From Eledone cirrhosa (lineage: Eukaryota), in contig OZ024741.1 in the NCBI GenBank assembly GCA_964016885.1, positions 240,064,001 to 240,128,000 of the forward strand: a stretch of DNA of 64,000 nucleotides, in the 5' to 3' direction. Positions 1,506-59,256 of the stretch are shown in pieces. The translations under genes and the position numbers were made by a program. Numbering within the stretch: the stretch's first letter is position 1; each line of letters opens with the position of its first letter. The notes beneath the pieces are model-generated. The model saw only the letters and a program-made list of their open reading frames with translations, was not told the DNA's origin and did not search any database.

Positions 1506-1688
1506 CTGTTGACAAATAAACCAAGAGAAATGTGAGGAGACATCAAACAATCCTAGTTACAATAAACATGTAGTTTACAATTAAATATTGGACTATATTA
1601 TTGAAGATAAAACATTGTTAAAATAATCTTATTGTTTATGTTTTACATATAGAATGAAGATAGAAAATATTTTAATCTTTTCACTTAC

Positions 1689-4061
1689 TGGGGTAGTTTT
1701 TGGTAAAGTTCTTGCCTGAACTGAAGCTTCATATTTATTCTGTAGCTGACCTTCTGAATAACATTCACTCTTTGATCTCTCAGAATATATATTTCTTTTT
1801 ATCATCTCTTCTGTATTCCTTGACATAGCAACAGGATTGTTAGACTGATACAACAATTGTTTCATCTCTGTTCTACCTTGGTATGCTGTAGTCTTTGTTG
1901 TAGTAGCTGTGTTATCTCTGTGTTTAATACATTTCATTATACACAGTGTTATAGAAACAACAATAGCCACTGATACTATTACTGCTGATGATACAATGAT
2001 AATAACCCATGTCATATGGACTCTACCTGAAGATTGTAAAGGTACAATTTTCAACATTGGTGATGTCTCATTACTAACAGCCAATACCAAAGTCACACTA
2101 GTTGTTGATGACTGAACTGGACTACCACTGTCTTTTACAACAAACTTTAGTTCATAACTTCCAGCATCATTTAGATAAACTTGTCTGGAGAATGATAAAG
2201 CACCACTGTGTGAGTTCATAGTAAACAACTGTTTATTATTTCCTTGTATGATTTCATATGTGAGGAAAGCATTGTTTCCACTGTCACCATCAGATGCTCT
2301 CAAAACTGTGATGTCACTCTTACTCTGGGGATGGTAGTGGACATTTAGGGTGTAAGGGTCAACACTAGGAAAGGTGAAATATGGAACATTGTCATTTTGA
2401 TCTAAAATCTCAACAACAACATTAGCTGTGTCATTCAGAGATGGACTTCCATTATCTTTGACAAAAACCTGAAATTTATACACATCTTGTTTCTCTCTGT
2501 CTAATGACATGGTGGCTGAAATAAAGCCATAACTGGTGATCAGAAATGGTAGATTTGATTTTTCTTTATGTAGCAGAGAATATGTGAGTTGTCCAGCAGA
2601 TCCAAGGTCAGGGTCAGTGGCATTGACAAAACCAATAGGGAAGTCTTTATCTTTGTTTTCATAGGTCATGAATTGGAATGTATCTTTGGTAAACTGTGGT
2701 TGTACATCATTGATATCAGTCACTTGGATAGAGAGAGTTTTAACACTTTTAAGAGGTGGTAATCCTTTATCTTGACATGAGACAGGAATGTTATAGTGTC
2801 CTTGTGTTTCTCTGTCTACTGGTTTGTTTAGAACTATTTTATATTCTTTAGATCCCATTGACTGTAGTTTGAATGTATCATGTTTGATATCACAGCTGAC
2901 CTCTCCATTTTGTCCAACATCATTGTCAGTGACCATCACATAAGCAATGAAACTACCAACTTTGATCTTCTCAGAAATGGTAGCTGTGTTGTCATTGATA
3001 GCAGAAACATAATCTATATCAATAGATGGAGGGTTGTTGTGTTGGTTGATAACATTTAGCAGAACTGTTGCTATGGAACTGAGTGGAGGGTTGCCTCCAT
3101 CTCTAGCTTCTATGAATAATTCAAAAGAGCTTTTTTCATTTAAGCTAGAAATTCTGGACAAAAATATTTTGCCATCTTTTCTATTTAATTCAAAATATTT
3201 CCTAGCTTGATCAGAAGTTTTGGGACTGAAATGGAAAGTAATTTTACTGTTGGGTCCTAAATCTTTATCTGTTACTGACAAATTAAGAATAGGTTTGGTT
3301 ATATCATGAGTGGTTCTAATGGAAATATTATAAAGTGGTTTTGAAAATACAGGTGGATTATCATTCGCATCTTCCACAACAATCAGAACATTTAACACAC
3401 ACTGTTTAGATGGGGAGCCTCCATCTTTAGCAATAACTTCTAAATTGTATTTCTCTTTTATCTCCCGGTCTAATTTATCCTTTAAAACGATCTTTAATGA
3501 GGAAATACCATCAGCTCTTTTAGAAACTGATAGAGAAAATAAATCATTAGATTTTTTAAGTTTATATTCAATAAAAGAATTTTGGTAACTAATATCTTTG
3601 TCTATGGCATTTGGAATTGACTTTGTCAGACCTCTTCCACCTATTTCCTCAAATTGTAGAATGATTTGTTTTTCTGGAAACTCTGGTTCATGGTCGTTAA
3701 TGTCTTCTATTACTATTTTAACTTTTATGATTTTTGTGAAAGTTTCCACTTTTTTAATTATAATTTTAACAGTTCTAGAACATTCTTTGTTGAATGTACA
3801 GAGTTTCTCTGCATCCAGTGTCTGAGCAGTGTACAGTTTACCTGTTTTGGTGATATTAAATAACTGTGCCACCTTTCGTTTAAATTGACTGAATGTTATC
3901 AATTGTTGGTCAGATGGTTTAACATTGTCTAAAAGTTTAGAATCAGCAGCAATGTCTGCTACATATGTTCCTGGACTTCTCTCTTCTTCCACATGGTAGG
4001 TAAGGTCTATGGTCAGAACACAGTGAACCATTGATAATACAATAGACAATGGTAGTAACAT
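1689..4061 (-). CDS. Pcdh: Protocadherin U1, large coding exon (signal peptide, EC1-EC6, TM, juxtamembrane)
   Basis: DxNDxxP, LDRE and A/VxDxD cadherin motifs in six repeats; C-x5-C in EC1; hydrophobic TM WVIIIVSSAVIVSVAIVVSITLC; donor CCA|GTAAGT at 1689/1688; acceptor TTTCAG|G at 4174/4173. Confidence 0.95.
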
Positions 4062-4672
4062 ATTGTTGTTGTATTGGTACTGATTAAAGATGTCCTGATG
4101 TGATGGTGTTGATTAAAGATGTTCCAATTTATTGGTAATATTTAACGATGTCCTGATATGTTGATGATTGAACCTGAAACTGGAATACATTTTTATCAAT
4201 TATTATTATGAGACATTGATCAAAGTTTTAAATACATTGATATTGTAAAATATTTACCACATCCCTCCATTATTTTTTTATCCTGCAATATAATTCAATT
4301 TTATAAATCCAAGATTGGTATGCCTGATATACCAGGATTACTAGATATATGAACAATGAAACAAACTGGGAAATTTGTACTTTGATAACTTCATGATATG
4401 CATAGTTTATGTGGATTACTGACATGTAGAGGGAACTAAAGATGAGAATGTTATTTTAATAATTTATTTACTGGGATATAATTACATAACATATATGTGC
4501 AAATGACATACAGGATTAAATGGATAAATAACTTTGGAGGAACAACTATTTACAGGAGCAAATGTTTGAAACTAGGGTTTTGTGTTTAGAAGTAAATTTC
4601 TTATTGTAGCAAAATGACTTAGGAAATGCATTGTGTTTATAATTGTGTGTATAAATTTCCAAGCGTTATCGG

Positions 4673-7257: not shown

Positions 7258-8613
7258 ATATTTCCTATTTCTCATCCTCCTGGCAAACTTCTTATACTCT
7301 GCTTTAGTCAAAGCAACATGTATTTTTTTTTAAGTTGAAAAGCATTATTCCTTACTATTCCATCTACTCTGATCAAACCTATTACTTATCTTTTATAGTT
7401 GCAGTAGCAACATTATTCAATCATATTGTCAAATTTTTAATTGAGTCTCTGAACCATCCTTAAAATTGGTCAGTGGTCTGCAGCCAGCTCTCAAGGGTAC
7501 ACCCAGTTCCCATCTATATACTACGAGTTATCTATTCATACATACATTTGTTAGTATTTTATGGCAGATAGCTCAGAGAGAAGCATACTTCAATTTACGG
7601 GCCCTTCCCCTTTCTTTCAACTATATTCCATCTCTCTACTTGCATTAAATTCACAGTGAAGTATCTAATCACTAAAATATGTTTGGGAACATTCAACATA
7701 GGGAAACTAAAGTTTTTAAGAATATGTCTGTATCTTTTAGTAAAGAAAAGAAAAAAAGAAAAAAGTATCCTAAATAAAATATATTTGGTTTTAAACATTT
7801 TCACTTCAAAATTTAGTTGTCAATATAATATAAATAAAAGGAAAAATGTCATAAACGAAAATATTAAGGAAAGCTGATCCAAAATTATGCTGAAAGATAT
7901 TACATAAAAAAGTTAGATCAAATGTGTAAAGAAATAAAAATACATTTCTATTTATAGCTTGATAATGATTAAAATGCAACAAAATAAAATTTTGAAATTA
8001 TATAAATATATTTTCAAAATTTTACTTCAATATTTTACTAGCAGTAAAAAATAAATATCTACATCAGATTAATGAAAGATTTTCTACAATATTCTGCCAA
8101 CTCCATTCACTTCCTGGCAGTATTAAACCTTTGTCTGTCAGCCATTATCCATTACACACAATTACCTCATCACTGCTAACAAACAACACACTATGACCAC
8201 ATCTAAACACACTGTAAACTATTTCTTTACACCTTTTCTAACATTTTAACATATCTTTCATAACCCATCAACATGTTTAGACACAACATTAAATCTTTCT
8301 TACAAAACACACACACTATAGCAAAATATTATATAGCTTGTTCTTTACTGTTACGTCTCACTATATATATAACAAATATAATATAGACATCAATAATACT
8401 GTTTATATGGAATAAAGTCTAAATATTAAACATTTTAATCATCATCTAATCAGTGATATAAAACAATATGGATAACATTACTGAAAAAAGAGTGAATTAT
8501 TGTTCAATCTCTTTGTTCTCAAGTTAATATTAAATATGTTAAAACTATATCTTATAGATTTACTGAGATTTAGTATATAAAATGAGATTATAAAAGATTA
8601 AATAGAAACTTAC

Positions 8614-9050
8614 CTCTTTAATAATTATATCATTGGTTATCCAGTGAGAATAGAGAGATGTATTATTGTCAAAAGCTCCATTGTAAGTGCTGCTGTAATG
8701 GTGTGTGACAATGGCTGTATGTTGATGGAGTAGTGTAGCACGTCAGGCAGATAGTCTGCTGCTAGGATAGGGTTGTGTGTTATTGAAGTTCTATGTTTGT
8801 GGCAGTACATCCCTCTATTAATATTGTGTATGTATTTATCCTTAAATATGATGTTTGTTTACTGTTACCAAAAACTATGTACATATATAGATATATATAT
8901 TTAAATAGCTACAATATTCTCTAGTTAAACATAACATGTTTGGTTTAATAACATCAGTAATGTGAATGCTTCACTTTGTTAGTGATTTCTGTCTATGTTT
9001 TAGTGAGAATCTGATTGGTTGAATAACCTAAACAGAAGACCAATGGCATT
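8614..9050 (-). promoter_or_regulatory. U1 promoter and non-coding exon 1 block
   Basis: About 430-bp block repeated upstream of 7 units; two opposed CCAAT boxes, TGACGTGC, near-invariant core, donor GAG|GTAAGT at 8614/8613. Confidence 0.75.
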
Positions 9051-9086
9051 GTTTTCTTTAATATTGATTTCTATTGGCAAAGCACG

Positions 9087-9090
<4 letters not shown>

Positions 9091-9134
<44 letters not shown>

Positions 9135-9145
9135 GTATATATATG
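9091..9145. repeat. (TA)n microsatellite next to the U1 promoter
   Basis: Seen directly. Confidence 0.9.
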
Positions 9146-9516
9146 AGAAAAGGTAAAGAGATGGTGTGAAAGTCATGCCTTTCCTCAAATCTATTAAGAA
9201 CCTTAATAACTTACAAAATTGGTTAATATTATTTCTAAAATGTAGAGAGATAATTTCTCATTAACCATTAACGCTAAAAGTCTACATTTGGTGTTTTTCA
9301 CCCAAACTTAAGTAGAAATACACTTTTAAAGAACGTGTTAAACTATATAAAATCTTCTCAGTTATTACACTCTAGAATACATTGTAAATCGTTAGAGTAT
9401 AGTTAATACAGAATATAATATTTGTGGGGGATTCTTTATGTGTGTAATGCACAGTCTATACCTTATATTTACATGTACAAATTTCCTTCTGCCACTATGC
9501 AAATGCACTTATATAA

Positions 9517-9593
9517 TTATACATGTTTTATTGGTGTTTCTTCACTGGAATCTTTTGATGTACATGTATCATTGTTTTTGTATATATTTTGAT
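9517..9593 (-). CDS. Pcdh: Protocadherin U2, terminal coding exon C (DQNIYKNNDTCTSKDSSEETPIKHV*)
   Basis: Acceptor TTTCAG|AT completes the phase-1 codon; 77-nt conserved island in divergent DNA; mostly synonymous differences among paralogues. Confidence 0.85.
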
Positions 9594-9834: not shown

Positions 9835-10000
9835 CTGATATTCCTGGTAATTCTTCATAATGTTTCATATCACCTTCATTCAATACACGTCTACTACTTC
9901 TCTTAGATGACATTGTATCTGATGTATAGTTACAAACCATAGGAGGATTATCTTCCACAGCATCATCACTTGATGTCACCACAACAGGTTGACAGTATTT
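9835..10000 (-). CDS. Pcdh: Protocadherin U2, coding exon B
   Basis: Same splice sites and frame as U1. Confidence 0.85.
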
Positions 10001-13164: not shown

Positions 13165-14340
13165 GATACTGGGGTACCAGAAAAAGTTCCTCACTTCCCA
13201 AACCAAAAAGAAGTCAATGACTTGGTCAGGGATATGGGTCTGACCAAGTCTAATGCAGAGCTATTCGTCTCCAGGATGAAGCAATGGAACTTGGTCAAGG
13301 AGGAAGTGCAGGTGACAAGTCAGAGAAGTCAACACAAATCTTTCTCAGGCTTTTACACTCTTAGGGATGGCCTCTGCTATGACGTCCCTGGACTGTTTGA
13401 CGTTATTGGGGTGCCGTTTATGCCCAAGGAGTGGTGGCTATTTATAGACAGCTCCACCACAAGTTTGAAGGCTGTCCTCCTCCACAATGGAAACAAGTTC
13501 CTGACACTGCCCCTAGCTCATTCAGTCTGGCTGAAGGAAGATAACTACAGTGTGAAAGTCCTCTTGGAAGCTCTGCAATACAACCAGTACAATTGGGAAA
13601 TCATTGGAGACTTCAAGATGGTGGCTTTCCTGCTTGGACTCCAAGGAGGCTTTATCAAATTCCAATGCTTCCTCTGCCTTTGGGACAGCAGAGCCACCTC
13701 TGACCACTACAAAATAAAGAACTGGGAGCAGCGAACAGAATTTGTAGTTGGGATCCGGAACGTCATGTGGGAGCCACTGATTGATCCCAGGATTGTGCTC
13801 ATGCCGCCACTGCACATTAAGTTGGGCTTGATGAAGCAGTTTGTGAAGGCTCTCAACCAAGAATCAGCCGCTTTTAAGTACCTTCTTGAGTTCTTCCCCA
13901 AGTTATCTGAGGCCAAAATCAAAGGTGGAATTTTTGTTGGACCTCAGAAAAAGAAGGCCTTTGAGTCTACCGAGTTCTCCAATAAGCTCAATAGGATTGA
14001 GAGAACAGCATGGAACTGTTTCAAGGCAGTTGTTAAGGGCTTCCAGAGCTGAAAACTATCAGCAACTGGTGCAGGATCTGATAAAGGCTTTTGGCGCCAT
14101 GGGATGCAGGATGTCGCTTAAACTCCATATGCTGGATGCTCACCTGGAAAAATTCAAGGACAATATGGGCGCCTACTCAGAAGAACAAGGCGAATGATTC
14201 CACTAAGATGTGAAAGAGATAGAGCGGAGGTACCAGGGCCACTACAATGAAAAAATGATGGGGGACTATATCTGGGGGCTAGTGCGGGAATGTGACCTGG
14301 ACTACAACTGCAAATCCAGGAAATCCAGTCATTTCTGACG
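13165..14340 (+). pseudogene. Transposase pseudogene (Chapaev3-like)
   Basis: Motifs LFIDSS..SLKAVLLHNGN, CFLCLWDSRA, PPLHIKLGLMKQFVKAL, MSLKLHMLDAH, SEEQGE*FH*D; frameshift near 14045, in-frame stops, N-terminus apparently missing. Confidence 0.75.
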
Positions 14341-14440: not shown

Positions 14441-15753
14441 TCAATGGCCGAGCTAGAGAAGAAATTCCAAACATGGAAGCACGGCCTAGAATCAAAAGGC
14501 CTTAAAATTAACATGGATAAGACTAAAGTTCTAGTTTGTAGGAAAGAAAATAAGGCGCCGGTCCCTTCCGGGAAATGGCCATGCTCAGTGTGTAGGAAAG
14601 GCGTAGGTAGAAACTCCATTTTATGTCCCAAATGCAAAGTATGGGTGCATAAAAGATGTAGTGGGATCACAGGTAAGCTAACTAAGAACACAGATTTTAC
14701 ATGTGGCCGGTGCTCTGGTGCAATAAGTAGCAGCAAGTGCCCACAAAATACTAGCTCTTTCAACTGCGCAGAGGGTTCTATAGAAATAGTGGACAGCTTC
14801 CGTTACCTGGGTGACAAAATCAGCAGTGGGGGAGGGTGCTCCGAAAGTACAGTAGCTAAAGTCAGAACTGGATGGAAAAAGTTCAGAGAGCTTATACCAC
14901 TATTAGCCGCTAAAGGGTTCTCCCTAAAAGTGAAAGGCAGGTTGTACGATGCCTGCATACGAACAGCAATGTTGCATGGCAGTGAGACCTGGGCATTGTG
15001 TGCAGAGGATATACGCAGACTAGAGAGGAACGAAGCTTGCATGCTCCGCTGGATGTGTAATAGTAATATACGCGAACGGCAAAGTATAAACGAACTAAGG
15101 AAAAAATTAGAAATAAGAGGGATCAGATGTTGTTTACTCGAGAGAAGGCTACGTTGGTATGGTCACGTGATGCGCATGAAAGACGACAGCTGTATAACAA
15201 AGTGCAGGGCAATAAAGATAGATGGTAGCCACGGAGTAGGCAGACCCAGAAAAACCTGGGACGAGCTGATAAATTCCGACCTCACACACTTACACCTCTC
15301 CAAGACAATGTTACTGGACCGAGATCTTTGGCGGTACTCAGTAATAGAGAAGACCCGCGTTACCTAAATACAAAGTAAAACCTACTACAGTCAGTAGGCA
15401 TCTCTAACAAAATACACCCCCGTCCCACCACCCCCACCCCATCCACACCGCCCCTTTCAATGTAAAGTTATGTTGGTGCCACAAAATCCAGGCCGAAACA
15501 AATGAGATCGTGTAGGTGTCACGACAAAAAAACACACAGTCCACGCTGTAATGTGACCGTGTAGGCAACACGGTAAAAACCTCCCAGCCCCACCCTGAAA
15601 ATGTGGTTGGTGTTAGGAAGGGCATCCAGCTGTAGAAAACCCGCCAGACAGTCCTATGCGAGCAAGACAACCACTCTTGCCTACAGTGGGAAAACTCCCA
15701 TCCAAACCCATGCAAGCATGGAACACGGACGCTAAACCTTGATGATGATGATG
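14441..15753 (+). mobile_element. 5'-truncated, relatively young RTE/RTEX-like LINE nested in the DNA transposon
   Basis: Uninterrupted 307-aa ORF (end of RT, PHD-like Cys/His finger, FRYLG, LHGSETW, RLRWYGHV, GRPRKTW); (GAT)n tail; ATATGAA TSD at 14434-14440 and 15754-15760. Confidence 0.9.
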
Positions 15754-19438: not shown

Positions 19439-19865
19439 CTCTTTAATAATTATATCATTGGTTATTCAGTGAGAATAGAAAGACGTATTGTTGTAGAAAG
19501 CTCCATTGCAAGTGCTGCTGTAATGGTGTGTGACAATGGCTGTATGTTGATGGAGTAGTGTAGCACGTCAGGCAGATAGTCTGCTGCTAGGATAGGGTTG
19601 TGTGTGTTATTGGAGTTGTATGTTTGTGGCAGTACATCTCTCTAATAATATTGTGTATGTATTTATCCTTAAATATGATGTTTGTTTACTGTTATCAAAA
19701 ACTATTTACATATATTTAGATATATATATTTAAATAGCTACAATAATCTATAGTTAAACAAACATGTTTGGTTTAATAACATCAGTAATTCTCTTTATTA
19801 GTGATTTCTGTATGTTTTAGTGAGAATCTGATTGGTTGAATGACCTAAACAGAAGACCAATGATA
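19439..19865 (-). promoter_or_regulatory. U2 promoter and non-coding exon 1 block
   Basis: Copy of the conserved block; donor GAG|GTAAGT. Confidence 0.75.
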
Positions 19866-20366
19866 ACATTCTCTTTTATATTGATTTCTGTTGGTAAAGC
19901 AGATGTTTCATATTTATTTATAGGGAAAGAGGAACTGTGATGGTCATGCCTTTCCCATATCTGTATATATTATTAATAAGAAATAATATTTAATATTTAT
20001 AATATTATTTATAAATATATTTTTAAAAATCTTTCTCTATTTTCATGCCATCCACTTTAATTTAATACATACAACCTTTAAAAAAAACGATAAACTATAA
20101 ATAATGTCATCAAAGATTACACTCCATAACAAATAGTAAATTATGTGTTATAGTGAATTAAAATTTATTCATAGTAACATACATAAAATTATTTTTCAAT
20201 CAAAGTAATGGATACTTAATAGGAAACTGTTCATTATTAAGACCCTCCCATCTTTGATGCTGTACATTGCTACCAGGTATAGTTAATATAGAATGTCAAC
20301 GTAGGTGTGTGTATGTTATTTTATATTTACAGAGAGAAAGTTAGTTATGTCCCTATGTTAATATCC

Positions 20367-23444: not shown

Positions 23445-25039
23445 ATTGTTGATGAGTTGGTACTGAGTTAAAGATGTCCAGATATGTTGCAACTGGTTAA
23501 AGTTTTTGAGGTGCCGAGTACTGAACATAAAAGAGAAGTATTAAATATACAATTATGAAACATTAGAATTATATGATTTTATTATTTTGCAACAGGACAT
23601 TAAAGCACAACAGTTGACTTAACTCGTCATCTGGTTTATAATTATAATCTGCTCCTAGGATACCTTTAGTAAAATTCACTTTGTCACATACATTTGGACC
23701 CTTCACACTATCATATTGCATAACTCTATTTTGACTTCACATCAAGAAAAGGGAGAGGAAGTATTTCGCTAATATTTTAAGGGGAAATGGCACCCTGGTA
23801 TTAGTCAGTTTGAGAATTGCTGGTTTAATGTTTAAGACAGCAGAACCTGAAATGCCATTACTGTGACAGCATATAGACTGTGTGGTATAATGGCATTAAA
23901 ACAATTATGACATGTAGAACCATTTTCAATTTTCATTTCTAAGAAAATAAAAGGTCATGATTAAAAAACTTAGAAAATGTTTCTTTGATATAAGAAAATA
24001 TCTTTCATTCTAAATACCATAAAATATTCCCAAAATGAAACTGAGTTTATACTCAGTTCTGATTTGAAACAATAACTAAATTATTTCTACATATCTACAT
24101 CAGACTAATGAAATGAGAACTGGTATAAGAAACATCTCTTATTTTGATATTCAAACTATTATTTGGATAAATACACATATTATGTGCTATCTAGCTAGCT
24201 TACCAAGAGAATGTGGAACTCTACCAGTTTAATCTCTAAGTTTATGTAACCCAAGCTATAGAAACATACAACAATGAATTCACAGATAAGTTGACCCCTG
24301 TGGCTCAGTCAAAAATGTATTTACAGTTCACACCTGTAACATTTCTATGATAATGGAAGTGATTATGTATGCTGGCTATTTTTACAAACTCCTCTCTCTT
24401 ACCATATTCACTCAATAATCAGCTATATGTTTTCTGAAGAGTCAGATCTATTGGAAACCCTCTCTTCTTTTTAACATATCAGGTCTCCTGTATTGACTTT
24501 AATATCAGTAAAATTTTCAAATCTGTTTGGTAAGAGAACCTATAAGAAATGTTGACTACCTATGAACTATACATTTCACCACCAGTGTACCAACAGAACA
24601 ATGAAAGATCAGCTATATGATTGCTGAACCTGCTAGAAATGTAGCCATACTTCCTTCACATTACATCCTACTGTCTTTAAAAAAAAACACAGTGGATTAT
24701 GTACAGTCCTGAATATATAAATAAAGACTGGATTCTTAAAGCTGGAATCTCTTTTATCATAGGTCTACTCAAACAGGGTTGTCTTCGCACTAAATAATAA
24801 CACATCTCCAGTAATCTGGATTCAAATATGTTGTGCACTTCAGGGTAGGCTGCACTACAACACTCTTTATACCAACCCATGTGTAACTCTGGATAGGCTA
24901 GTCTCTAACCCTAACATTATCAAATGTCATATACCTCAATGTAGGTTACTCGCTAATCTTCACACTATTAATAGAAAAACATTAGGGAAATCCCAGATAT
25001 CAAAAGCCTCAGATCTTGAAACAATCGCCAACATACACA

Positions 25040-27725: not shown

Positions 27726-28165
27726 CTCTTTAATAATTATATCATTGGTTTTCCAGTGAGAACAGAAAGATGTATTGTTGTAGAAAGCTCCATTGTAAGT
27801 GCTGCTGTAATGGTGTGTGACAATGGCTGTATGTTGATGGAGTAGTGTAGCACGTCAGGCAGATAGTCTGCTGCTAGGATAGGGTTGTGTGTGTTATTGA
27901 AGTTGTATGTTCGTGGCAGTACATCTTTCTAATAATATTGTGTATGTGTTTATCCTTAATTATGATGTTTGTTTACTGTTATCAATAACTATTTACATAT
28001 TTATCTAGATATATATTTAAATAGCTATAATATTCTCTCGTTAAACATAACATGTTTGGTTAAATAACATCAGTAATAAGAATGTTTCTCTTTGTTAGTG
28101 ATTTCTATCTATGTTTTAGTGAGAATCTGATTGGTTGAATGACCTAAACAGAAGACCAATGACAA
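27726..28165 (-). promoter_or_regulatory. U3 promoter and non-coding exon 1 block
   Basis: Copy of the conserved block. Confidence 0.75.
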
Positions 28166-28635
28166 TGTTCTCTTTAATATTGATTTCAGTTGCTGAAGCA
28201 GACGCCCCTTATTTACAGGGAAAAGCAAAAGTGATTGTATGACAATAATGCCTTTCCCAAATCTATTAATAACATTAATAACTTACAATATTACAATCCA
28301 ATTTTTGATAATATTATTTCTAAAGTATAAAGAATTTTTTCTCATTAATATCAAATAATCTTTTGGTATATTCTGCACACCTTAAATCGGATTACACAGA
28401 ACCTTTATAGACCATTGTAAAACATTTAAGATGTAGCCACTTATTAAACTCTATAACAGATAGGAAACCTTGTCACAGAGTAATAATTTATTTACTGTAA
28501 TATTTATAAAACTATGTTCAGTCAGAGTATAGTTAATTTTGAATGTGTATGTGGGTGTGTGATCATATGTGTAATGTACAGTCTCTATTTTATAAATATA
28601 TGTAAAACATTAGTGATCTCACTGTAGTAATATAA

Positions 28636-28942: not shown

Positions 28943-28988
28943 GTAGTTATTAACCTGATATTCCAGGTATTTCTTCATAATGTTTCAT
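28943..28988 (-). pseudogene. Orphan duplicate of the exon B 3' end (MKHYEEIPGISG plus donor)
   Basis: Matches the exon B end of the U3 type; no homologous acceptor. Confidence 0.8.
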
Positions 28989-29528: not shown

Positions 29529-29712
29529 GGCGGTGGATTGGCAGTATCGGTAGAGGGTCGGACGCCATGCTTTCCAGCATAGTTAAGTCCCTTTACGATC
29601 TGAGTTCAAATCCCGCCGAGGTTGACTTTGCCTTTCATCCTTGCGGGGTCGATAAAATAAAGTACCAGTAATGTACTGGGTAATTGCTGGCCTTGTGCCA
29701 AAGGTAGAAACA
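29529..29712 (+). mobile_element. Full-length SINE (family A) in U4 intron 2
   Basis: 15-bp TSD ATTATTGAAGATAAA (29514-29528 and 29713-29727); empty site in the other units. Confidence 0.92.
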
Positions 29713-29804
29713 ATTATTGAAGATAAAACATTGTTAAAATAATCTTATTGTTTATCTTTTACATATAAAGTAAAGATATAAAATATTTTAATCTTTTCAC
29801 TTAC

Positions 29805-32177
29805 TGGGGTAGGTTTTGGTAAAGTTCTTGCCTGAACTGAAGCTTCATATTTATTCTGTAGCTGACCTTCTGAATAACATTCACTCTTTGATCTCTCAGA
29901 ATATATATTTCTTTTTATCATCTCTTCTGTATTCCTTGACATAGCAACAGGATTGTTAGACTGATACAACAATTGTTTCATCTCTGTTCTACCTTGGTAT
30001 GCTGTAGTCTTTGTTGTAGTAGCTGTGTTATCTCTGTGTTTAATACATTTCATTATACACAGTGTTATAGAAACAACAATAGCCACTGATACTATTACTG
30101 CTGATGATACAATGATAATAACCCATGTCATATGGACTCTACCTGAAGATTGTATAGGTACACTTTTCAACATTGGTGATGTCTCATTACTAACAGCCAA
30201 TACCAAAGTCACACTAGTTGTTGATGACTGAACTGGACTACCACTGTCTTTTACAACAAACTTTAGTTCATAACTTCCAGCATCATTTAGATAAACTTGT
30301 CTGGAGAATGATAAAGCACCACTGTGTGAGTTCATAGTAAACAACTGTTTATTATTTCCTTGTATGATTCCATATGTGAGGAAAGCATTGTTTCCACTGT
30401 CACCATCAGATGCTCTGAAAACTGTGATGTCACTTTTACTCTGGGGATGGTAGTGAACATTTAGGATGTAAGGGTTAACACTAGGAAAGGTGAAATATGG
30501 AACATTGTCATTTTGATCTAAAATCTCAACAACAACATTAGCTGTGTCATTTAGAGATGGACTTCCATTATCTTTGACAAAAACTTCAAATTTATACACA
30601 TCTTGTTTCTCTCTGTCTAATGACATGGTGGCTGAAATAAAGCCATAACCGGTGATCAGAAATGGTAGATTTGATTTTTCTTTATGTATCAGAGAATATG
30701 TGAGTTGTCCAGCAGATCCAAGGTCAGGGTCAGTGGCATTGACAAAACCAATAGGGAAGTCTTTATCTTTGTTTTCATAGGTCAGGAATTGGAATGTATC
30801 TTTGGTAAACTGTGGTTGTACATCATTGATATCAGTCACTTGGATAGAGAGAGTTTTAACACTTTTAAGAGGAGGTAATCCTTTATCTTGACATGAGACA
30901 GGAATGTTATAGTGTCCTTGTGTTTCTCTGTCTACTGGTTTGTTTAGAACTATTTTATATTCTTTAGATCCCATTGACTGTAGTTTGAATGTATCATGTT
31001 TGATATCACAGCTGACCTCTCCATTTTGTCCAACATCATTGTCAGTGACCATCACATAAGCAATGAAACTACCAACTTTGATCTTCTCAGAAATGGTAGC
31101 TGTGTTTTCATTGATAGAAGAAACATAATCTATATCAATAGACGGAGGGTTGTTGTGTTGGTTGATAACATTTAGCAGAACTGTTGCAATGGAACTGAGT
31201 GGAGGCTTACCTCCATCTCTGGCTTCTATAAATAATTCAAAAGATGTTTTCTCATTTAAACTAGAAATTCTGGACAAAAATATTTTGCCATCTTTTTTAT
31301 TTAATTCAAAATATTTCTTTGCTTGATCAGAAGTTTTGGGGCTGAAATGGAAAGTAATTTTACTGTTGGATCCTAAATCTTTGTCTGTCACTGACAAATT
31401 AAGAATAGGTTTGGTTTTGTCATGTGTAGTTCTAATGGAAATATTATAAAGTGGTTTTGAAAATACAGGTGGATTATCATTCTCATCTTCCACAATAATC
31501 AGAACATTTAACACACATTGTTTAGATGGGGAACCTCCATCTTTAGCGATAACTTCCACATTGTATTTCTCTTTTATCTCTCTATCTAATTTATCTTTTA
31601 AAACAATCTTTAATGAGGAAATACCATCAGCTCTTTTAGAAACTGACAAAGAAAATAAGTCATTAGATTTTTTAAGTTTATATTCAATAAAAGAATTTTG
31701 GTAACTAATGTCATTGTCTATGGCATTTGGGATTGACTTTTTCATACCTTCCCGATCTCCTTCCCCAAATTGTAAAGTGATTTGTCTTTCTGGAAACTCT
31801 GGTTCATGGTCGTTAATGTCTTCTATTACTATTTTGACTTTTATAATTTTTGTGAACGTTTCTACTTTCTTCATTATAATTTTCACAGTTCTAGAACATT
31901 CTTTGTTGAATGTACAGAGTTTCTCTGCATCCAGTGTCTGAGCAGTGTACAGTTTACCTGTTTTGGTGATATTAAATAACTGTGCCACCTTTCGTTTAAA
32001 TTGACTGAATGTTATCAATTGTTGGTCAGATGGTTTAACACTGTCTAAAAGTTTAGAATCAGCAGCAATGTCTGCTACATATGTTCCTGGACTTCTCTCT
32101 TCTTCCACATGGTAGGTAAGGTCAATGGTCAGAACACAGTGGACCATTGATAATACAATAGATAATGACAGTAACAT
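29805..32177 (-). CDS. Pcdh: Protocadherin U4, large coding exon
   Basis: Six EC repeats and TM; donor CCA|GTAAGT; acceptor TTTTAG|A at 32238/32237. Confidence 0.95.
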
Positions 32178-35775: not shown

Positions 35776-36205
35776 CTCTTTAATAATTATATCCTTGGTT
35801 AGTCAGTGAGAATAGAAAGATGTATTGTAGTAGAAAGCTCCATTGTAAGTGCTGCTGTAACGTGTGTGACAATGGCTGTATGTTGATGGAGTAGTGTAGC
35901 ACGTCAGGCAGATAGTCTGCTGCTAGGATAGGGTTGTGTGTGTTATTGGAGTTGTATGATTGTGACAGTACATTTCTCTAATAATATTGTGTATGTATTT
36001 ATCCTTAATTATGATGTTTGTTTACTGTTATCAATAACTATTTACATATATTTAAATAGCTACAATATTCTATAGTTAAACATAACATAAATGTTTGGTT
36101 TAATAACATCAGTAATGTCAATGTTTCTCTTTGTTAGTGATTTCTGTCTATATTTTAGTGAGAATCTGATTGGTTGAATGACCTAAACAGAAGACCAATG
36201 GCAGA
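35776..36205 (-). promoter_or_regulatory. U4 promoter and non-coding exon 1 block
   Basis: Copy of the conserved block. Confidence 0.75.
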
Positions 36206-36764
36206 TGTTCCCTTTAATATTGATTAGTTAGGGTGACACAGACGTCTGATATTTATAGGGAACAGTGAAAGGGATTCTGTGACACTCATGCCGTTTCCAA
36301 ATCTATAAATAACTGCAATAAGTTACACTATCTACTTTTGAAAAAAATCCCTCCTAAAATGTAAAGAAATTTCTCATTTATCTAATAATATTCCTTATGT
36401 ATTTTTACAAACACCTTCATGAGAATTACATAAATCTTTCAAAGAATATAGTAAAGCATATAAAATGTGTGTTATAGTAAGCTATGTTCTATGTATGGTA
36501 ATATATAACCCGTGCTAGCAAGGAAAGCAGATGTTAAAAATGACAATGATGATGATGATGATAACTATTTTTGAAGACCTAGTTAATTTTAGGAAACATT
36601 TTTCAATTAGAAACCCTCCACTGTTTGATAATGTACACTGTGGCAACTTCTATTTAATATACAATGGGTATTTAATATAAAATTGGTGTATGTGTTCATT
36701 TGTGTATTCTAGAGACTATATTTTATTTTTGCATTGAGAAATTTATGTCACTTCAATAGTATAA

Positions 36765-37532: not shown

Positions 37533-39908
37533 TGGGGTAGGTTTTGGTAAAGTTTTTGACTGAACTGAAGCTTCATATTTATTCTGTAGCTGACCTTCTG
37601 AATAACATTCACTCTTTGATCTCTCAGAATATATATTTCTTTTTATCATCTCTTCTGTATTCCTTGACATAGCAACAGGATTGTTAGACTGATACAACAA
37701 TTGTTTCATCTCTGTTCTACCTTGGTATGCTGTAGTCTTTGTTGTAGTAGCTGTGTTATCTCTGTGTTTAATACATTTCATTATACACAGTGTTATAGAA
37801 ACAACAATAGCCACTGATACTATTACTGCTGATGATACAATGATAATAACCCATGTCATATGGACTCTACCTGAAGATTGTATAGGTACACTTTTCAACA
37901 TTGGTGATGTCTCATTACTAACAGCCAATACCAAAGTCACACTAGTTGTTGATGACTGAACGGGACTACCACTGTCTTTTACAACAAACTTTAGTTCATA
38001 ACTTCCAGCATCATTTAGATAAACTAGTCTGGAGAATGATAAAGCACCACTGTGTGAGTTCATAGTAAACAACTGTTTATTATTTCCTTGTATGATTTCA
38101 TATGTGAGGAAAGCATTGTTTCCACTGTCACCATCAGATGCTCTCAAAACTGTGATGTCACTCTTACTCTGGGGATGGTAGTGGACATTTAGGGTGTAAG
38201 GGTTAACACTAGGAAAGGTGAAATATGGAACATTGTCATTTTGATCTAAAATCTCAACAACAACATTAGCTGTGTCATTCAGAGATGGACTTCCATTATC
38301 TTTGACAAAAACTTCAAATTTATACACATCTTGTTTCTCTCTGTCTAATGACATGGTGGCTGAAATAAAGCCATAACTGGTGATCAGAAATGGTAGATTT
38401 GATTTTTCTTTATGTATCAGAGAATATGTGAGTTGTCCAGCAGATCCAAGGTCAGGGTCAGTGGCATTGACAAAACCAATAGGGAAGTCTTTATCTTTGT
38501 TTTCATAGGTCAGGAATTGGAATGTATCTTTGGTAAACTGTGGTTGTACATCATTGATATCAGTCACTTGGATAGAGAGAGTTTTAACACTTTTAAGAGG
38601 TGGTAATCCTTTATCTTGACATGAGACAGGAATGTTATAGTGTCCTTGTGTTTCTCTGTCTACTGGTTTATTTAGAACTATTTTATATTCTTTAGATCCC
38701 ATTGACTGTAGTTTGAATGTATCATGTTTGATATCACAGCTGACCTCTCCATTTTGTCCAACATCATTGTCAGTGACCATCACATAAGCAATGAAACTAC
38801 CAACTTTGATCTTCTCAGAAATGGTAGCTGTGTGATCATTGATAGCAGAAACATAATCTATATCAATAGATGGAGGGTTGTTGCGTTGATTGATAACATT
38901 TACCAGAACTGTTGCTATGGAACTGAGAGGAGGGCTCCCTCCATCTCTAGCCTCAATAAACAGCTCATAGGTTTTCTTTTTTCCTAAACTTGAATATTTA
39001 TTTAAGAAAATGTTTCCACTCGTTTCATTTAAGTGGAAATAACGTTTTGCTAGATCCGATGTCTTTGGACTGAAATGGAAAGTAATTTTACCATTTAGAC
39101 CAGAATCAGAATCTGTTACAGATAAAACAATGATAGGTTTAGATTTGTGATGTGTACTTTGTACTGATATATTATATAGAGGTTTAGAAAATACTGGTGG
39201 GTTGTCATTTAAATCTGTTATAGAGATATTTATATTTAACACACCCTGTTTTGATGGTGAACCTCCATCTTTAGCTATGACTTGTAGTAAATATCTATCT
39301 TTGATTTCTCTATCTAATGATTCTTTCAAAACTATTTTAAGAGAAGAAATACCATCTGCTCTTTTAGAAACAGACAGAGAGAATGGTTCGCCATTCTTTG
39401 ATTTTAATTTATATTGTATTAAGGAGTTTTGAAACCCAACATCTTTGTCTATGGCATTTGGTAGTGATCGTTTTGAACTGATACGATCATCTTCTCCAAA
39501 CAAGATATTTACAGTTTTCCTAGGAAACTCCGGTTCATGGTCATTGATGTCTTCTATTACTATTTTAATTTTTAATATTTTAGTAACACTTACTCCTTTA
39601 TTGACAACAACCTTCACAGTTCTAGAACATTCTTTGTTAAATGTACAAAGTTTCTCTGCATCCAGTGTCTGAGCAGTGTACAGTTTACCTGTTTTGGTGA
39701 TATTAAATAACTGTGCCACCTTTCGTTTAAATTGACTAAATGTTATCAATTGTTGGTCAGATGGTTTAACATTGTCTAAAAGTTTAGAATCAGCAGCAAT
39801 GTCTGCTACATATGTTCCTGGACTTCTCTCTTCTTCCACATGGTAGGTAAGGTCTATGGTCAGAACACAGTGGACCATTGATAATACAATAGACAATGAC
39901 AGTAACAT
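37533..39908 (-). CDS. Pcdh: Protocadherin U5, large coding exon
   Basis: Six EC repeats and TM; acceptor TTTTAG|G at 39963/39962. Confidence 0.95.
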
Positions 39909-42388
39909 ATTGTTGATGTGTTGGTACTGGTTAAAGGTATCCAGATATTCTGAGGATTGAACCTAAAATAGAAGTTTAAATTATGCAATTATCATTAAAC
40001 CATTAAAAATATATGAATTTATAGCAGAAAATCTATAGATTAAAGCAAATGTTAATAGCTTATCTTTCATTGTATGTACAGAACTGAAAAACAAATCAAC
40101 ATCTATGTACTTCCTAAAATATCTATTCAACAAAGCAGTATAACAACAGTAAATAGTCTTTTATTAACAAACCATATGTGTAACTCTAAAACTAAAGAAT
40201 GGTGTACAATTTATGCTCAGTTATTATCTCTAACAGCTCTCAATATGTAATATTATTCAAGATTCCTACACCATCATAAAAAAGTAGGAATACCACTGCC
40301 AAATATCAAAATATTCTCTTTACTCAAACACACCAATTTTGAGATGTTTCTTCATATCATGGATGACAGTATGTACAGTATAGCAATAATGTTTCTTCAA
40401 ACCACATTGCTCTATTTTCAAAGCAACAATAGATAGCACTGTGTACAGTATTGAAAAAAATGATTATTTGAATAATTTCAATCTCTTTCAAACATCGTTT
40501 ATTGAACTCCTGGATTATGGTAAATTCAGTACTGAAATAACATTTCTTCAACTCCCTTTACTCTATTTTCAAAGGAACAGTAAATGACACAATGTCCAGT
40601 ATTGAAATGATGTAATGTAAGAATATAAAAAGAACAGTTAACATGGAAAATGTTCATTCTATGACAAATTTAGTGACCCCTATCACACTATTTTACACAT
40701 ACGTGACATTGTTCATAATTTTTTTCAAAAGAAACCAATACCAACTTCCATATATTTCAATAATTCAAATAATCTTTCAATGTTATTTCAAGTCAAAGAG
40801 GCTCATAGATTTCTGAGAACAAAAGTATAACATTTTGTTCTAAAACTATTGATTATATTTGGAAAGACAAATCAATAATTAAGATATGACTGCCACCAGA
40901 CCTAAATTGATGCTATAACTTATATTGGGTCTAATTAACTTGTTACTAACACTTGGTCTAATGAAGGGATGACAAGCACAAGGTCTGATATGACTAGCAC
41001 CAGATTTAAAGAAGATATAACCAGTACCAGATCTAATTAAATTATGATAAGCACCAAATATGCTGTTGATATGGCTAGCAGCAAATTTGAGGATGATATG
41101 ACTGATAATAAGTTCATGAAGATATGACAAGCAGTATATAACTAACATCAGGTCTAGATTGAAGTAGAATCATTATAAAAATCAAAAATGGTAATATTTT
41201 CAGAAAAGACAATAAAGAATTGAATTGTAGAATTTAACATAGTTTCATTTATTTTAAAATATGTTTACAATGGCTATTCTAAATATATAAGTTGTTTATA
41301 TTATTGTTTCTGAGAAGTAACGATAAAAGAATCCCAGATTAGAAGACTGACAAAAGATTAAGTTTGTGAGAAAGGAAAACTAAAATGTAACAGCTTAAGG
41401 AAAGATACAGAGCAGAATCAAATTCTAATGACTACAGATTATTGATAATAGTTGCAGTTTAACTGGACACAGAATATTATGAAATGAATCTGATTATGAT
41501 GATTATAATGATAATGAATTGTTTTTGCTTTCATCTGTAAATCAAATATATGTATTGAATATAATCACTGAAAAATATTTAAAATATTACCAAAATCCAG
41601 AAATTCAAATTCATAACTAGATATATGAAAATATAGTGTAAAATACTATGTTAAATTTAGACTGAAGTTATAAAAATATATTAAAAAATGAAAAGAAGCA
41701 GAGAATGAAGATTTGATTAAAAATTATATTTTATTCTGTCTTATTCACAGATATGATATATAAGTAATCATATTCAATATACTTCATGTTGTTTATACTG
41801 TGATAATTCCAAACAGAACTATCATCTCATTTCCTTTGTCTCTAAAACATGCCACCATGTTTCTATTTATGCCATGGCAGTTGTGAATTCTAATATGTCT
41901 GCCGTTAGCCCTAACCAAAATCTCTGACACACCATTACTTGAACACTACTAACAATCTACACACTATAACCAGATTTAAACACATTGTAATATATACATT
42001 TACATTTTATATCAAACATCTTAACATATCTTTCATGTGTATGGACAAAATTACAACTATCATTAAACATATCTTTCATTACATCAAAACATATTTTACA
42101 TTACATTTAACTTTTTTTTAAATGATCATTATATGTAATATATAGTATTTATATACAGATAATACTGTTTATATGGAATAAAGTCTGAATATTAAACATT
42201 CTAATTAACATCATCTAATTAATTGTGATAGAAAACAATATGGACAACATTACTGAAAAATATCTCTGAATTATTGTTCAATTTCTTTGTTCACATATTA
42301 ATATTAAATATGTTAGAACAATATATTTACAGATTTACTAAGATTTAGTATATAAAATGAGATTATATAAGATTAAATAAAAACTTAC

Positions 42389-42815
42389 CACTTTAATAAT
42401 TATATCCTTGGTTATTCAGTGAGAATAGAAAGACGTATTGTTGTAGAAAGCTCCATTGTAAGTGCTGCTGTAATGGTGTGTGACAATGGCTGTATGTTGA
42501 TGGAGTAGTGTAGCACGTCAGGCAGATAGTCTGCTGCTAGGATAGGGTTGTGTGTGTTATTGAAGTTGTATGTTCGTGGCAGTACATCTTTCTAATAATA
42601 TTGTGTATGTGTTTATCCTTAATTATGATGTTTGTTTACTGTTATCAATAACTATTTACATATATTTAAATAGCTACAATATTCTATAGTTAAACATAAC
42701 ATAAATGTTTGGTTAAATAACATCAGTAATGTGAATGTTTCTCTTTGTTAGTGATTTCTGTCTATGTTTTAGTGAGAATCTGATTGGTTGAATGACCGAA
42801 ACAGAAGACCAATGA
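42389..42815 (-). promoter_or_regulatory. U5 promoter and non-coding exon 1 block
   Basis: Copy of the conserved block; donor GTG|GTAAGT. Confidence 0.75.
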
Positions 42816-43399
42816 CAATTTTCTCTTTAATATTGATTTCTAAAGGTGATACAGATGTTTCATATTTACAGGAAAAGGTAAAGAGATGCAATGATCATCA
42901 TGCATTTCCCAAAACTATTAACATCATTACTTATTTCTTTTTAATATTATTATTACTTCTATAATGTATGGAATTGTCTTCACATTAACAAAAAATCTGT
43001 TGGTATTTTTACCCCCCACCTTAAGTAGAATTACATAAATCCTTTAAAGAACATGGTAAATTATATAGAAAGTCCGAAAATAATACACCAAAGTATATGT
43101 TATAAGGATTTATAATTCATTTATTTTAAAATATATTGTAATATTTTCTAACCAACGGAAACTGAACTAATTAGACCAAATAGATCTGTGGTTCCTTATC
43201 GGAAGCACTGCTTGTATATATGAAGAACCCACCTCCTATTTCTGATAATGTATGTTGATACCTACACTTATTTTTAATTAGAGTACAGTTAATAAAGAAT
43301 GTGTATGTCGATATATATGTGTTCATGTGTGTATTGCACAGTCTATCTATATTTCATATTTACATAGAGGAAGATAGTTATGTCACTTTACTAATATCA

Positions 43400-43476
43400 T
43401 TATACATGTTTCACTGGTGTTTCTTCACTGGAATCTTTCGATGTAGATGTATCATTGTTTTTATATATATTTTGAT
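43400..43476 (-). CDS. Pcdh: Protocadherin U6, terminal exon C
   Basis: Acceptor TTACAG|AT; ends PVKHV*. Confidence 0.85.
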
Positions 43477-43925
43477 CTGTAATTTAGATACAAAATACAC
43501 TTTATATGGAGGGGATAAATCTGCTATTAAATAGGGCAATGAAATGATACAATGTTCTAAAGATTACTAGCACAACAGATTCTTCAAAACCTCACTGGGC
43601 AAATTAGAAAGTTAATTCTTATTGAATGACAAAATCATCAAAAACAGTTCTTAATAGATAATATGATGTGATATAAAGATCATATATTGCTAATGTAGTT
43701 TGTAAACTTTTGATGTAGCTGTAATGACATTTTAGAAAATTAGAGACGGGACCATTTCATTATTTAATAAGTTATATTGAAAGACAGGCAATGGTGTAAC
43801 AGTCAGATTCTCTAAGAATTGAATGAGCAAATAAATAAATTTATTGTTTTAGACTGGCAATGTTTTATATTGTTAAATATAGTTTGTAATGAATATCTAC
43901 TTGAGATGATAAAACAAAATATAAT

Positions 43926-44106
43926 TGTTTCTACTTTTGGAACAAGGCCAGCAAACACCCAGTGCATTACTGGTACTTTATTTTATAGACCCCGTAAGGA
44001 TGAAAAGGAAAGTTAACCTCAGCGGGATTTGAACTAAGAATGGCAAGGGACGTAACTCTATGCGTCAAAGCATGGTGTCCGACCCCCTACCGATACTGCC
44101 AATCCA
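43926..44106 (-). mobile_element. SINE (family A) in U6 intron 3
   Basis: Reverse complement of the 29529 element; flanking direct repeat ACAAAATATAAT. Confidence 0.88.
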
Positions 44107-44138
44107 CAAAATATAATAAAGCCAAAGTAGTTATTAAC

Positions 44139-44304
44139 CTGATATTCCTGGTAATTCTTCATAATGTTTCATATCACCTTCATTCAATACACGTCTACTA
44201 CTTCTCTTAGATGACATTGTATCTGATGTATAGTTACAAACTATAGGAGGATTATCTTCCACAGCATCATCACTTGATGTCACCACAACAGGTTGACAAT
44301 ACTT
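44139..44304 (-). CDS. Pcdh: Protocadherin U6, coding exon B
   Basis: Same splice sites and frame as U1. Confidence 0.85.
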
Positions 44305-44480
44305 CTGTTGACAAACAAACCAAGAAAAATGTGAGGAGACATCAAACAATGCTAGTTACAATAAACATGTAGTTTACAATTTAATATTGGACTATATTAT
44401 TGAAGATAAAGCATTGTTAAAATAATGTTATTGTTTATCTTTACAAAGTAAAGAGAAAATATTTTAATCTTTTCACTTAC

Positions 44481-46856: not shown

Positions 46857-47569
46857 ATTATTGTTGATGTGTTGGTACTGGTTAAAGGTATCCAGATATT
46901 CTGAGGATTGAACCTAAAATAGAAGTTTAAATTATGCAATTATCATTAAACCATTAAAAATATATATGAATTTATTACTTTTTAGCAGAAAATTTATAGA
47001 TTAAAGCAAATGTTAATAGCTTATCTTTTATTGTATCTACAGAACTGAAAAACAAATCAACATCTATGTACTTCCTAAAATATCTATTCAAACATTGCTC
47101 TATTTTCAAAGCAACAATAGATAGCATTGTGTACAGTATTGAAAAAATGATTATTTGAATCATTTCAATCTCTTTCAAACATCGTTTATTGAACTCCTGG
47201 ATTATGGTAAATTCAGTACTGAAATAACATTTCTTCAACTCCCTTTACTCTATTTTCAAAGCAACAGTAAATGACACAATGTCCAGTATTGAAATGATGT
47301 AATGTAAGAATATAAAAAGAACAGTTAACATGGAAAATCTTCATTCTATGACAAATTTAGTGACCCCTATCACACTATTTTACACATATGTGACATTGTT
47401 TATATTTTTTTTCCAAAGAAACCAATACCAACTTCTATATATTTCAATAATTCAAATAATCTTTCAAAGTTATTTCAAGTCAAAGAGGCTCATAGATTTC
47501 TGAGATCAAAAGTATAACATTTTGTTCTAAAACTATTGATTATATTTGGAAAGACAAATAAATAATTAA

Positions 47570-49580: not shown

Positions 49581-50008
49581 CACTTTAATAATTATATCCT
49601 TGGTTATTCAGTGAGAATAGAAAGATGTATTGTTGTAGAAAGCTCCATTGTAAGTGCTGCTGTCATGGTGTGTGACAATGGCTGTATGTTGATGGAGTAG
49701 TGTAGCACGTCAGGCAGATAGTCTGCTGCTAGGATAAGGTTGTGTGTGTTATTGAAGTTGTATGCTTGTGGCAGTACATCTTTCTAATAATATTGTGTAT
49801 GTGTTTATCCTTAATTATGATGTTTGTTTACTGTTATCAATAACTATTTACATATATTTAAATAGCTACAATATTCTATAGTTAAACATAACATAAATGT
49901 TTGGTTAAATAACATCAGTAATGTGAATGTTTCTCTTTGTTAGTGATTTCTGTCTATGTTTTAGTGAGAATCTGATTGGTTGAATGACCGAAACAGAAGA
50001 CCAATGAC
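49581..50008 (-). promoter_or_regulatory. U6 promoter and non-coding exon 1 block
   Basis: Copy of the conserved block. Confidence 0.75.
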
Positions 50009-50573: not shown

Positions 50574-50650
50574 TTATACATGTTTCACTGGTGTTTCTTC
50601 ACTGGAATCTTTCGATGTAGATGTATCATTGTTTTTATATATATTTTGAT
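50574..50650 (-). CDS. Pcdh: Protocadherin U7, terminal exon C
   Basis: Same as U6 exon C. Confidence 0.85.
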
Positions 50651-51281: not shown

Positions 51282-51312
51282 AAAATATAATAAAGCCAAA
51301 GTAGTTATTAAC

Positions 51313-58817: not shown

Positions 58818-59256
58818 CTCTTTAATAATTATATCATTGGTTATTCAGTGAGAAGAGAAAGATGTATTGTTGTAGAAAGCTCCATTGTAAGTGCTACTGT
58901 AATGGTGTGTGACAATGGCTGTATGTTGATGGAGTAGTGTAGCACGTCAGGCAGATAGTCTGCTGCTAGGATAGGGTTGTGTGTGTTATTGAAGTTCTAT
59001 GTTTGTAGCAGTACATCTCTGTAATAATATTGTGTATGTATTTATCCTTAAAGATGATGTTTGTTTACTGTTATCATTAACTATTTACATATTTATCTAG
59101 ATATATATTTAAATAGCTACAATATTGTATATAACATGACATGAATGTATAGTTTAATAACATCAGTAATGTGTATATTTCTCTTTGTTAGTGATTTCTG
59201 TCTATGTTTTAGTGAGAATCTGATTGGTCAAATGACCTAATCCGAAGACCAATGAC
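58818..59256 (-). promoter_or_regulatory. U7 promoter and non-coding exon 1 block
   Basis: Copy of the conserved block. Confidence 0.75.

Follow-up and report, generated by a model that had tools for sequence, protein, structure and literature searches.

A core of 68 bp is identical in the seven copies that accompany the genes of a tandem protocadherin (Pcdh) array, and we propose that it occupies the centre of a non-coding leader exon, which is spliced and would precede the coding exon of each gene. The sameness of the copies is likely due mostly to exchange of sequence between the genes, and the core may in addition contain regulatory sites common to them. Our best guess, held with a probability of about 0.5, combines the leader exon with gene conversion and with a regulatory role of the core at the level of DNA; we rank it ahead of a core that has no function of its own, and the latter ahead of a role at the level of RNA.

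Results

The window, by which we mean the whole stretch of 64,000 nucleotides that was analysed, carries eight long minus-strand ORFs that encode protocadherins, with Pfam matches to Cadherin_2 and Cadherin, and as their best protein relatives come from Octopus vulgaris (91%) and Argonauta hians (80-88%), the array is octopod. The gene plan comprises four exons: a leader, a big coding exon that in gene 5 encodes signal peptide, cadherin repeats and TM, a 166-nt exon 3 and a terminal exon 4 (Table 1). Exon 3 is present in 8/8 genes and exon 4, ending in KHV-stop, in 7/8. Since each gene has its own exons 3 and 4, both matching the C-termini of annotated relatives, the genes are whole-gene duplicates, and BLAST and translation ruled out a vertebrate-like organisation of variable exons and constant exons. 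Gene 1 (1-1340) shows no exon 4 within 1340 nt after exon 3, whereas the other seven genes have it within ~240-660 nt; its exon 4 may lie outside the window or may have been lost. A splice acceptor is found by pattern 54-112 nt before the ATG in 6/7 genes, and at its 3' end the big exon of each ORF has a donor, CCA followed by GTAAGT. In gene 3 (~23500-23530) TTTTAT replaces TTTTAG, creating an in-frame upstream ATG, and the next AG lies 6 nt downstream. As the acceptor precedes the ATG, an upstream exon is required, and a conserved block that holds the core supplies the donor.

The original prediction described a core essentially unchanged at seven places within a near-invariant element of ~100 bp, and both statements hold. 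A search of the window finds a 63-mer with 0 mismatches in 7/7 copies, and 0/100 shuffled sequences contain a match to it. Over the 111-bp range 8672..8782 the 7 copies differ at 7 places, each confined to a single copy (5 substitutions, a 1-nt indel and a 2-nt indel), and the longest run that is invariant in all of them is the 68 bp given in Table 1. BLAST finds only 7 blocks and no additional core-like copy in the window, and the element stands, as was also claimed, at the 5' regulatory end of every Pcdh gene of the window (7/7). The further statement that the flanks diverge with many indels needs correction, as the exon-1 blocks of 448-462 bp differ pairwise by only 1.1-8.6% and strong divergence around copy 1 is found only beyond ~9070 and below ~8500. 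Nor is "upstream of every unit" an apt description of where the core lies: its distance to the next ORF varies between 2574 and 6973 bp and that to the big exon of the previous gene between 1319 and 1864 bp, and the only fixed spacing is to the splice donor, 92-93 nt away, and not to the ATG. The donor, AG/TG followed by GTAAGT, is kept in 7/7 units.

The TGACGTG of the core, which we take to be a CRE/ATF-like bZIP site, occurs 8 times in the window, 7 of these being the core copies, and it carries a CpG in a window that is poor in CpG (observed/expected 0.20). By a post hoc count, 1.2% of 5000 dinucleotide-shuffled versions of the core contain TGACGT. The dyad that had been predicted together with this site is present in 7/7 copies as well, but a dyad with 5-bp arms arises in 33% of the 5000 shuffles, and being at chance level it was ruled out as a special feature. 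The core also contains GCCAT, presumably a YY1/Pho-like core. An exact 30-mer scan of metagenome contigs gave 0 matches, a result that is uninformative for animal sequence.

Table 1. Features of the leader exon, its core copies and the exons of the array (positions in the window)
Feature	Position	Strand	Remarks
Core copy 1, 68 bp	8702..8769	-	Seven-copy comparison; holds the 63-mer 8707-8769; in the very probable leader exon
Core copy 2	19532..19594	-	Block 19439-19886
Core copy 3	27819..27881	-	Block 27726-28185
Core copy 4	35868..35930	-	Block 35776-36225
Core copy 5	42482..42544	-	Block 42389-42838; copy used for contig alignment
Core copy 6	49674..49736	-	Block 49581-50030
Core copy 7	58911..58973	-	Block 58818-59279
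TGACGTG with CpG, taken as CRE/ATF-like bZIP site	8739..8745	-	All 7 copies
Dyad GCAGA-TAG-TCTGC	8747..8759	.	All 7 copies; not beyond chance
GCCAT, taken as YY1/Pho-like core	8711..8715	-	Common in window, weak
Candidate non-coding exon 1 of gene 1	8614..9069	-	~455-bp block from invariant AATCAAT to splice donor; 5' limit (TSS) putative
Splice donor GTAAGT, intron 1 of gene 1	8608..8613	-	Same donor in 7/7 units
Short uORF	8637..8681	-	Closes 5' of donor; 14 codons in 6/6 units analysed
Two presumed CCAAT boxes, opposite orientation	9014..9044	-	ATTGG 9044-9040, CCAAT 9018-9014; invariant 7/7
TATTTAAA, second TATA-like candidate	8900..8907	-	Invariant 7/7
T(A/G)TAAATA, TATA-like box, unit 5	42863..42870	-
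Exon 2 of gene 5	37533..39962	-	Acceptor TTTTAG before G at 39962; 54-nt UTR; ATG 39908; ends in CCA before GTAAGT
Exon 2 of gene 1	1689..4173	-	Would be splice partner of core copy 1; acceptor 4173, ATG 4061
Exon 3 of gene 2	9835..10000	-	166 nt, coding; 8 copies in window
Terminal coding exon 4 of gene 2	9517..9593	-	Ends in KHV-stop; 7 copies in window

Evidence for splicing comes from the contigs of 4 of 24 candidate sequencing runs (Logan contigs: X24, X10, X1 and X21), which were aligned to one circularly permuted unit (39000-45850); only unit 5 was aligned and paralogues collapse on it, so that a joint belongs to no particular gene. The records of the runs name RNA in 0/24 cases, 20 of the 24 are guessed to be RNA, with small shares, and contigs carry no information on TSS, strand or level. 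Joints between exons 3 and 4 across a GT-AG intron are found in X24, X1 and X10, and joints between exons 2 and 3 in X1 and X10; as these are spliced, we take the three runs to be RNA. Record 26 of X24 (506 nt; organism H, taken as the species of the window and the organism of the three best runs, each with over half of the stretch's words) aligns over its first 232 letters to 42622-42391 and over its last 217 (290-506) to 39913-39697, and the 57 letters in between fit the length of the exon-2 UTR of a paralogue. In X10, from organism D, a second species, the joint is 39919/42387 and skips 2467 nt. The joint of exon 1, core included, to exon 2 is present in these 2 of the 4 aligned runs; it is not among the joints listed for X1, and in X21, which is DNA-like and covers introns, its row has depth 0 among the joints counted. 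As contigs join exon 1 with the core to the coding exon, the core is very probably located inside a spliced leader exon, and as the spliced contig of X24 extends 78 nt 5' of the core, the core would lie at least 78 nt into the transcript.

The leader exon is presumably the first exon, and transcription would most likely start in one of two places. One is near the AATCAAT that bounds the block, ~300 nt 5' of the core. There a T(A/G)TAAATA box, TATA-like by our own naming, precedes AATCAAT by 32 nt in 5/7 units and by 36 nt in unit 2, a spacing that is only suggestive of a start; in unit 1 a (TA)n microsatellite (9087-9148) is found in place of this upstream box. Alternatively, TATTTAAA and the two boxes within the block that we take for CCAAT boxes would fit a start ~100 nt 5' of the core. 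The CCAAT region at 42792-42817 is covered by contigs in X24, X1 and X10, which speaks for the first of the two starts or for transcription running through from the preceding gene. In X1 and X10 no contig extends above ~42893, and this points to the TSS region only faintly, if at all. With either candidate start the core lies downstream of the TSS. As a coding exon the core was ruled out: in six frames it gives 0 protein matches in 120 relatives, as against 89 for exon 3 and 15 for exon 4, and its frames are broken by indels.

Invariance as such is not exceptional in this array: by a comparison that the original prediction had missed, much coding sequence, synonymous sites included, is equally invariant. 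Invariant runs in the CDS of the same 7 genes measure 178, 131, 92, 66, 66, 64 and 61 bp, and a further run, of 87 bp, lies in exon 3. Variable four-fold sites number 6 of 35 in CDS 1-300 and 37 of 50 in CDS 301-1050, which by count from the sequence comprises the last ~30 residues of EC1 together with EC2-EC3. In EC4-EC6 the number is 10 of 121, and among the 48 four-fold sites of the TM/cytoplasmic part none varies. The CDS of all 8 genes (37533-39908 in gene 5) is thus a sharp mosaic, in which paralogues differ by 1-3% in most of EC1, EC4-EC6, TM and cytoplasmic DNA and by 6-34% in the end of EC1 and EC2-EC3. As selection at the protein level cannot freeze synonymous sites, the array is regionally homogenised, and judging from these patterns gene conversion would be the homogenising process; homogenised parts have a GC3 little above that of the diverse one (0.31 and 0.27 vs 0.22). 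At CDS 501-1000 genes 1 and 4 stand 27-31% apart from the other genes, but at CDS 1101-2376 only 0.8-1.6%, and the distance matrices of different CDS regions disagree.

Genes 1 (1629-4061) and 4 (29745-32177) have an EC2-EC3 type of their own, 7-11% apart from each other and 25-34% from the rest, and genes 7 and 8 (51571-54030 and 60482-62917) look chimeric at CDS 301-500; these types and chimeras suggest that conversion, or else unequal crossover, may have shuffled domains. Units 5 and 6 go back to a recent duplication (5571 bp at 96.8%). The duplication (41360-46924 / 48550-54098) spans intron 1 of one gene, the promoter and the whole coding exon of the next gene upstream, so that the duplicated unit is offset from the gene boundaries.

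Identity among the core copies is therefore expected, as the array is regionally homogenised and units 5 and 6 are a recent duplicate. A core without any function of its own, merely the centre of a frequently converted tract in the leader exon, is a doubtful reading and yet the best placed of the rivals. It agrees with the longer invariant runs in the CDS and exon 3, with TM/cytoplasmic DNA whose four-fold sites are constant without such an element, with a dyad at chance level and no signal of RNA structure, and with the recent duplication, by which the seven copies are not independent. It agrees poorly with the other non-coding parts of the mRNA, which are unhomogenised: copies differ pairwise by 18.8% on average over the 50 nt that precede the ATG, and by 35.1% over the 150 nt that follow the stop. 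It also has to account for the fact that in organism D the half of exon 1 that holds the core has changed less than the rest.

This last comparison uses the contigs of X10. The one over 42393-42529 shows 4 other letters and a 2-nt gap in 135, and two contigs further 5' in the block show 38 differences in 279 (Fisher p 4e-4 against the former); for two contigs of constant CDS the figure is 84 in 1141, and the contrast with the 42393-42529 contig is not significant (p 0.07). These numbers draw on five of the eight X10 records shown, which may be different paralogues, and the contig over 42393-42529, record 10, spans 48 of the 63 core bases. Within the window, a 68-column invariant run among the 437 columns of the block (73 variable, gaps collapsed) is reached by a share of 5e-5 of 20000 shuffles, a test that assumes independent columns and is to be read with conversion tracts in mind, which cluster invariance. 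The flanks of the core are 91-99% identical, and the core is a real local peak of invariance in exon 1, although longer invariant runs exist in the CDS; on this pattern, selection on shared sites is plausible. A single X10 contig follows the core's 3' half as far as 42511, where the match ends, and beyond this point has TGAGTCA, which we take to be an AP-1-like site, 4 nt off the place of the CRE-like one; this is a hint that a relative with a diverged sequence has retained a bZIP site. The X10 contig ends at 42478 and 42511, which match only the 3' half of the core before diverging, possibly belong to the leader exon of another Pcdh subfamily.

The constraint could also act on the RNA, with a protein-binding site in the 5' UTR and a uORF in strong start context that would set translation or localisation of all isoforms alike. 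We consider this unlikely. The core does lie in the spliced leader, the uORF is kept with 14 codons in 6/6 units analysed and is closed before the donor, and the conserved contig of organism D spans it. The start of the uORF, 68 nt before the donor, reads ACAATGG in 6/7 units and GCAATGG in unit 2. Against a role of the uORF, upstream ATGs are frequent in the AT-rich leader, the peptide is variable and the uORF lies outside the invariant run; the upstream ATGs of the leader all close within 57 codons and indels shift the frames between units. Against a structured RNA, folding of the core does not go beyond that of shuffles (z -0.31 for 68 nt, -0.88 for 111 nt and -1.25 for 234 nt), and in 42300-43500 no Rfam match comes near threshold, the only two rows being sub-threshold and outside the core. 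With ordinary folding and a negative Rfam search, an RNA hairpin or Rfam family was ruled out for the core.

Scarcely credible, finally, is a block that would be an internal or 3' exon of the upstream gene, transcribed by read-through, or a dispersed repeat that entered ahead of the array's expansion: the upstream stop is only 413-562 nt from the block, record 27 of X24 continues for 423 unmatched letters past exon 4 and read-through fusions are met in octopus Pcdh annotation according to passages of PMC9712504, but no conserved acceptor AG was found 5' of the exon-1 block, exon 4 contains the stop codon and agrees with the C-terminal end of the relatives that are annotated, the window holds no further copy, and the summed contig depth of X21, a rough contrast that gives no copy number, is 249 over the core bin, resembling CDS bins (136-1644; mostly 15-40 in single-unit intron) and far below the 3.6 million of a SINE. 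This depth contrast argues against a high-copy repeat; a few copies may exist elsewhere.

Discussion

Based on our data we propose that the core would be the central part of a leader exon whose copies are kept identical, likely by gene conversion and likely with the help of selection on transcription-factor sites. These sites would act just downstream of the promoter of each gene, and the bZIP-like site, judged from its letters, would be bound by a factor. The net effect would be one promoter and leader for all genes of the subfamily, so that a common set of factors would act on every gene and the differences would lie chiefly in late EC1-EC3.

The core was originally proposed as an analogue of the vertebrate CSE, which passages of PMC7811963 and PMC3333863 describe as a promoter motif of ~22 bp that includes a CGCT box, lies at a similar distance upstream of each start codon and binds CTCF in a manner sensitive to methylation. 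Like the CSE so described, the octopod element is present once at the 5' end of each tandem Pcdh unit (7/7 intergenic regions), contains a CpG and is common to paralogues. Unlike it, the octopod core is ~68 bp long and sits 2.6-7 kb from the ATG in a spliced leader, presumably of RNA; the contigs thus take it out of the upstream promoter position that the CSE occupies. Moreover, the CSE of these sources stands out against paralogous promoters that have diverged, whereas the octopod core belongs to genes that are homogenised over most of their length.

CGCT occurs in 0 exon-1 blocks, and, as had been noted, the blocks are free of a CTCF consensus: 0 of the 53 window matches to a 14-letter consensus (<=3 mismatches, no weight matrix) fall within them. 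The core is not a CSE, since it has neither CTCF consensus nor CGCT box nor a fixed distance to the ATG. In a loose sense it could still act in the manner of one, as a handle common to identical promoters, since elements of first exons are able to act in DNA; we rate this as improbable.

The analogy in the form first proposed, in which a methylation-sensitive factor other than CTCF would make the promoters interchangeable for stochastic choice, we regard as highly unlikely. It can point to the one copy per gene (7/7), to the CpG retained in TGACGTG despite the low CpG content of the window, and to the exonic CTCF site (eCBS) in the variable exons of Pcdh-alpha, reported in part of PMC7811963 to work at the DNA level, by which a site in a first exon could act in DNA; stochastic choice in cephalopod Pcdh arrays is itself treated as an open hypothesis in passages of PMC10658181. 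The eCBS resembles the octopod core in that it is shared and lies in the first exon, 3' of the TSS, but as described there it is a CTCF site in a coding exon, whereas the octopod exon is non-coding and without CTCF match. The analogy is further weakened by the place of the core inside a transcript, by the cytoplasmic exons that each gene of the array has for itself, and by what parts of two studies report from octopuses. In Octopus bimaculoides methylation affects fewer than 10% of CpGs and is found mainly in gene bodies, it is scant to absent at promoters, and its pattern is nearly the same between tissues (PMC9476566), and by this comparison the idea of methylation at the core CpG is weak. 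Cells of O. vulgaris express ~19-21 Pcdh genes each, some broadly and some enriched in cell types (PMC9712504).

Setting the CSE aside, the regional pattern of homogenisation has closer counterparts. Passages of PMC1852091 describe regional conversion in the fugu, zebrafish and mammalian Pcdh clusters, with near-identical 3' parts of the ectodomain exon, sharp boundaries and diverse EC2-EC3 that escape it, much as in the octopod array. Unlike those clusters, the octopod array consists of duplicated whole four-exon genes, and its homogenised parts extend to the non-coding first exon, the greater part of EC1 and the separate cytoplasmic exons of each gene. Coleoid sub-arrays, as seen in passages of PMC9068888, likewise hold related multi-exon genes in one orientation with their own 3' exons, for which duplication and conversion were suggested; those passages contain no leader exon, promoter motifs or domain-wise pattern of homogenisation. 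That late EC1-EC3 escape homogenisation here, as EC2-EC3 do in vertebrates, is maybe the more interesting convergence; a literature search for octopus work on EC2 and EC3 gave vertebrate-centred work only.

How a choice is made among the 150-290 Pcdh genes of cephalopods is still an open question in the parts of PMC10658181 and PMC9068888 that bear on it. The map of the 5' end of one octopod subfamily obtained here, which covers both TSS candidates, the CCAAT pair, the leader exon and its invariant core of 68 bp, and the splice to the coding exon, shows where CAGE, ATAC and reporter work should aim. It also carries a caution, namely that identity between paralogues in these arrays is no evidence of function, because synonymous sites are equally homogenised. 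It is a long shot that octopods independently evolved interchangeable Pcdh promoters, with a bZIP-centred handle in a shared non-coding first exon that is kept by conversion while late EC1-EC3 diversify; if true, the core would provide the first concrete cis-element with which the choice of Pcdh genes by cephalopod neurons could be tested. In the texts reached by a full-text literature search, which left aside the 2015 octopus genome paper and Wang and Ragsdale 2017, no description of a leader exon or promoter element of cephalopod Pcdh genes was found, and public annotations, including the long-read-based one of PMC9712504, may already contain the leader exon and its start.

Several smaller features accompany the array. 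A partial second copy of the 3' end of exon 3 lies at 28950-28988 in intron 3 of gene 4. A SINE-like repeat of ~185 bp occurs in both orientations at 139-320, 29539-29718, 43921-44101, 51095-51275 and 59959-60139; its contig depth in X21 is very high, and one copy sits in the short intron 2 of gene 4 with a flanking duplication. Intron 1 of gene 2 holds two plus-strand ORFs, 13234-14052 and 14444-15367. The former, without a Pfam match, looks to us like a transposon fragment, and the latter has a PHD finger and reads like what we take to be the C-terminal part of a LINE protein.
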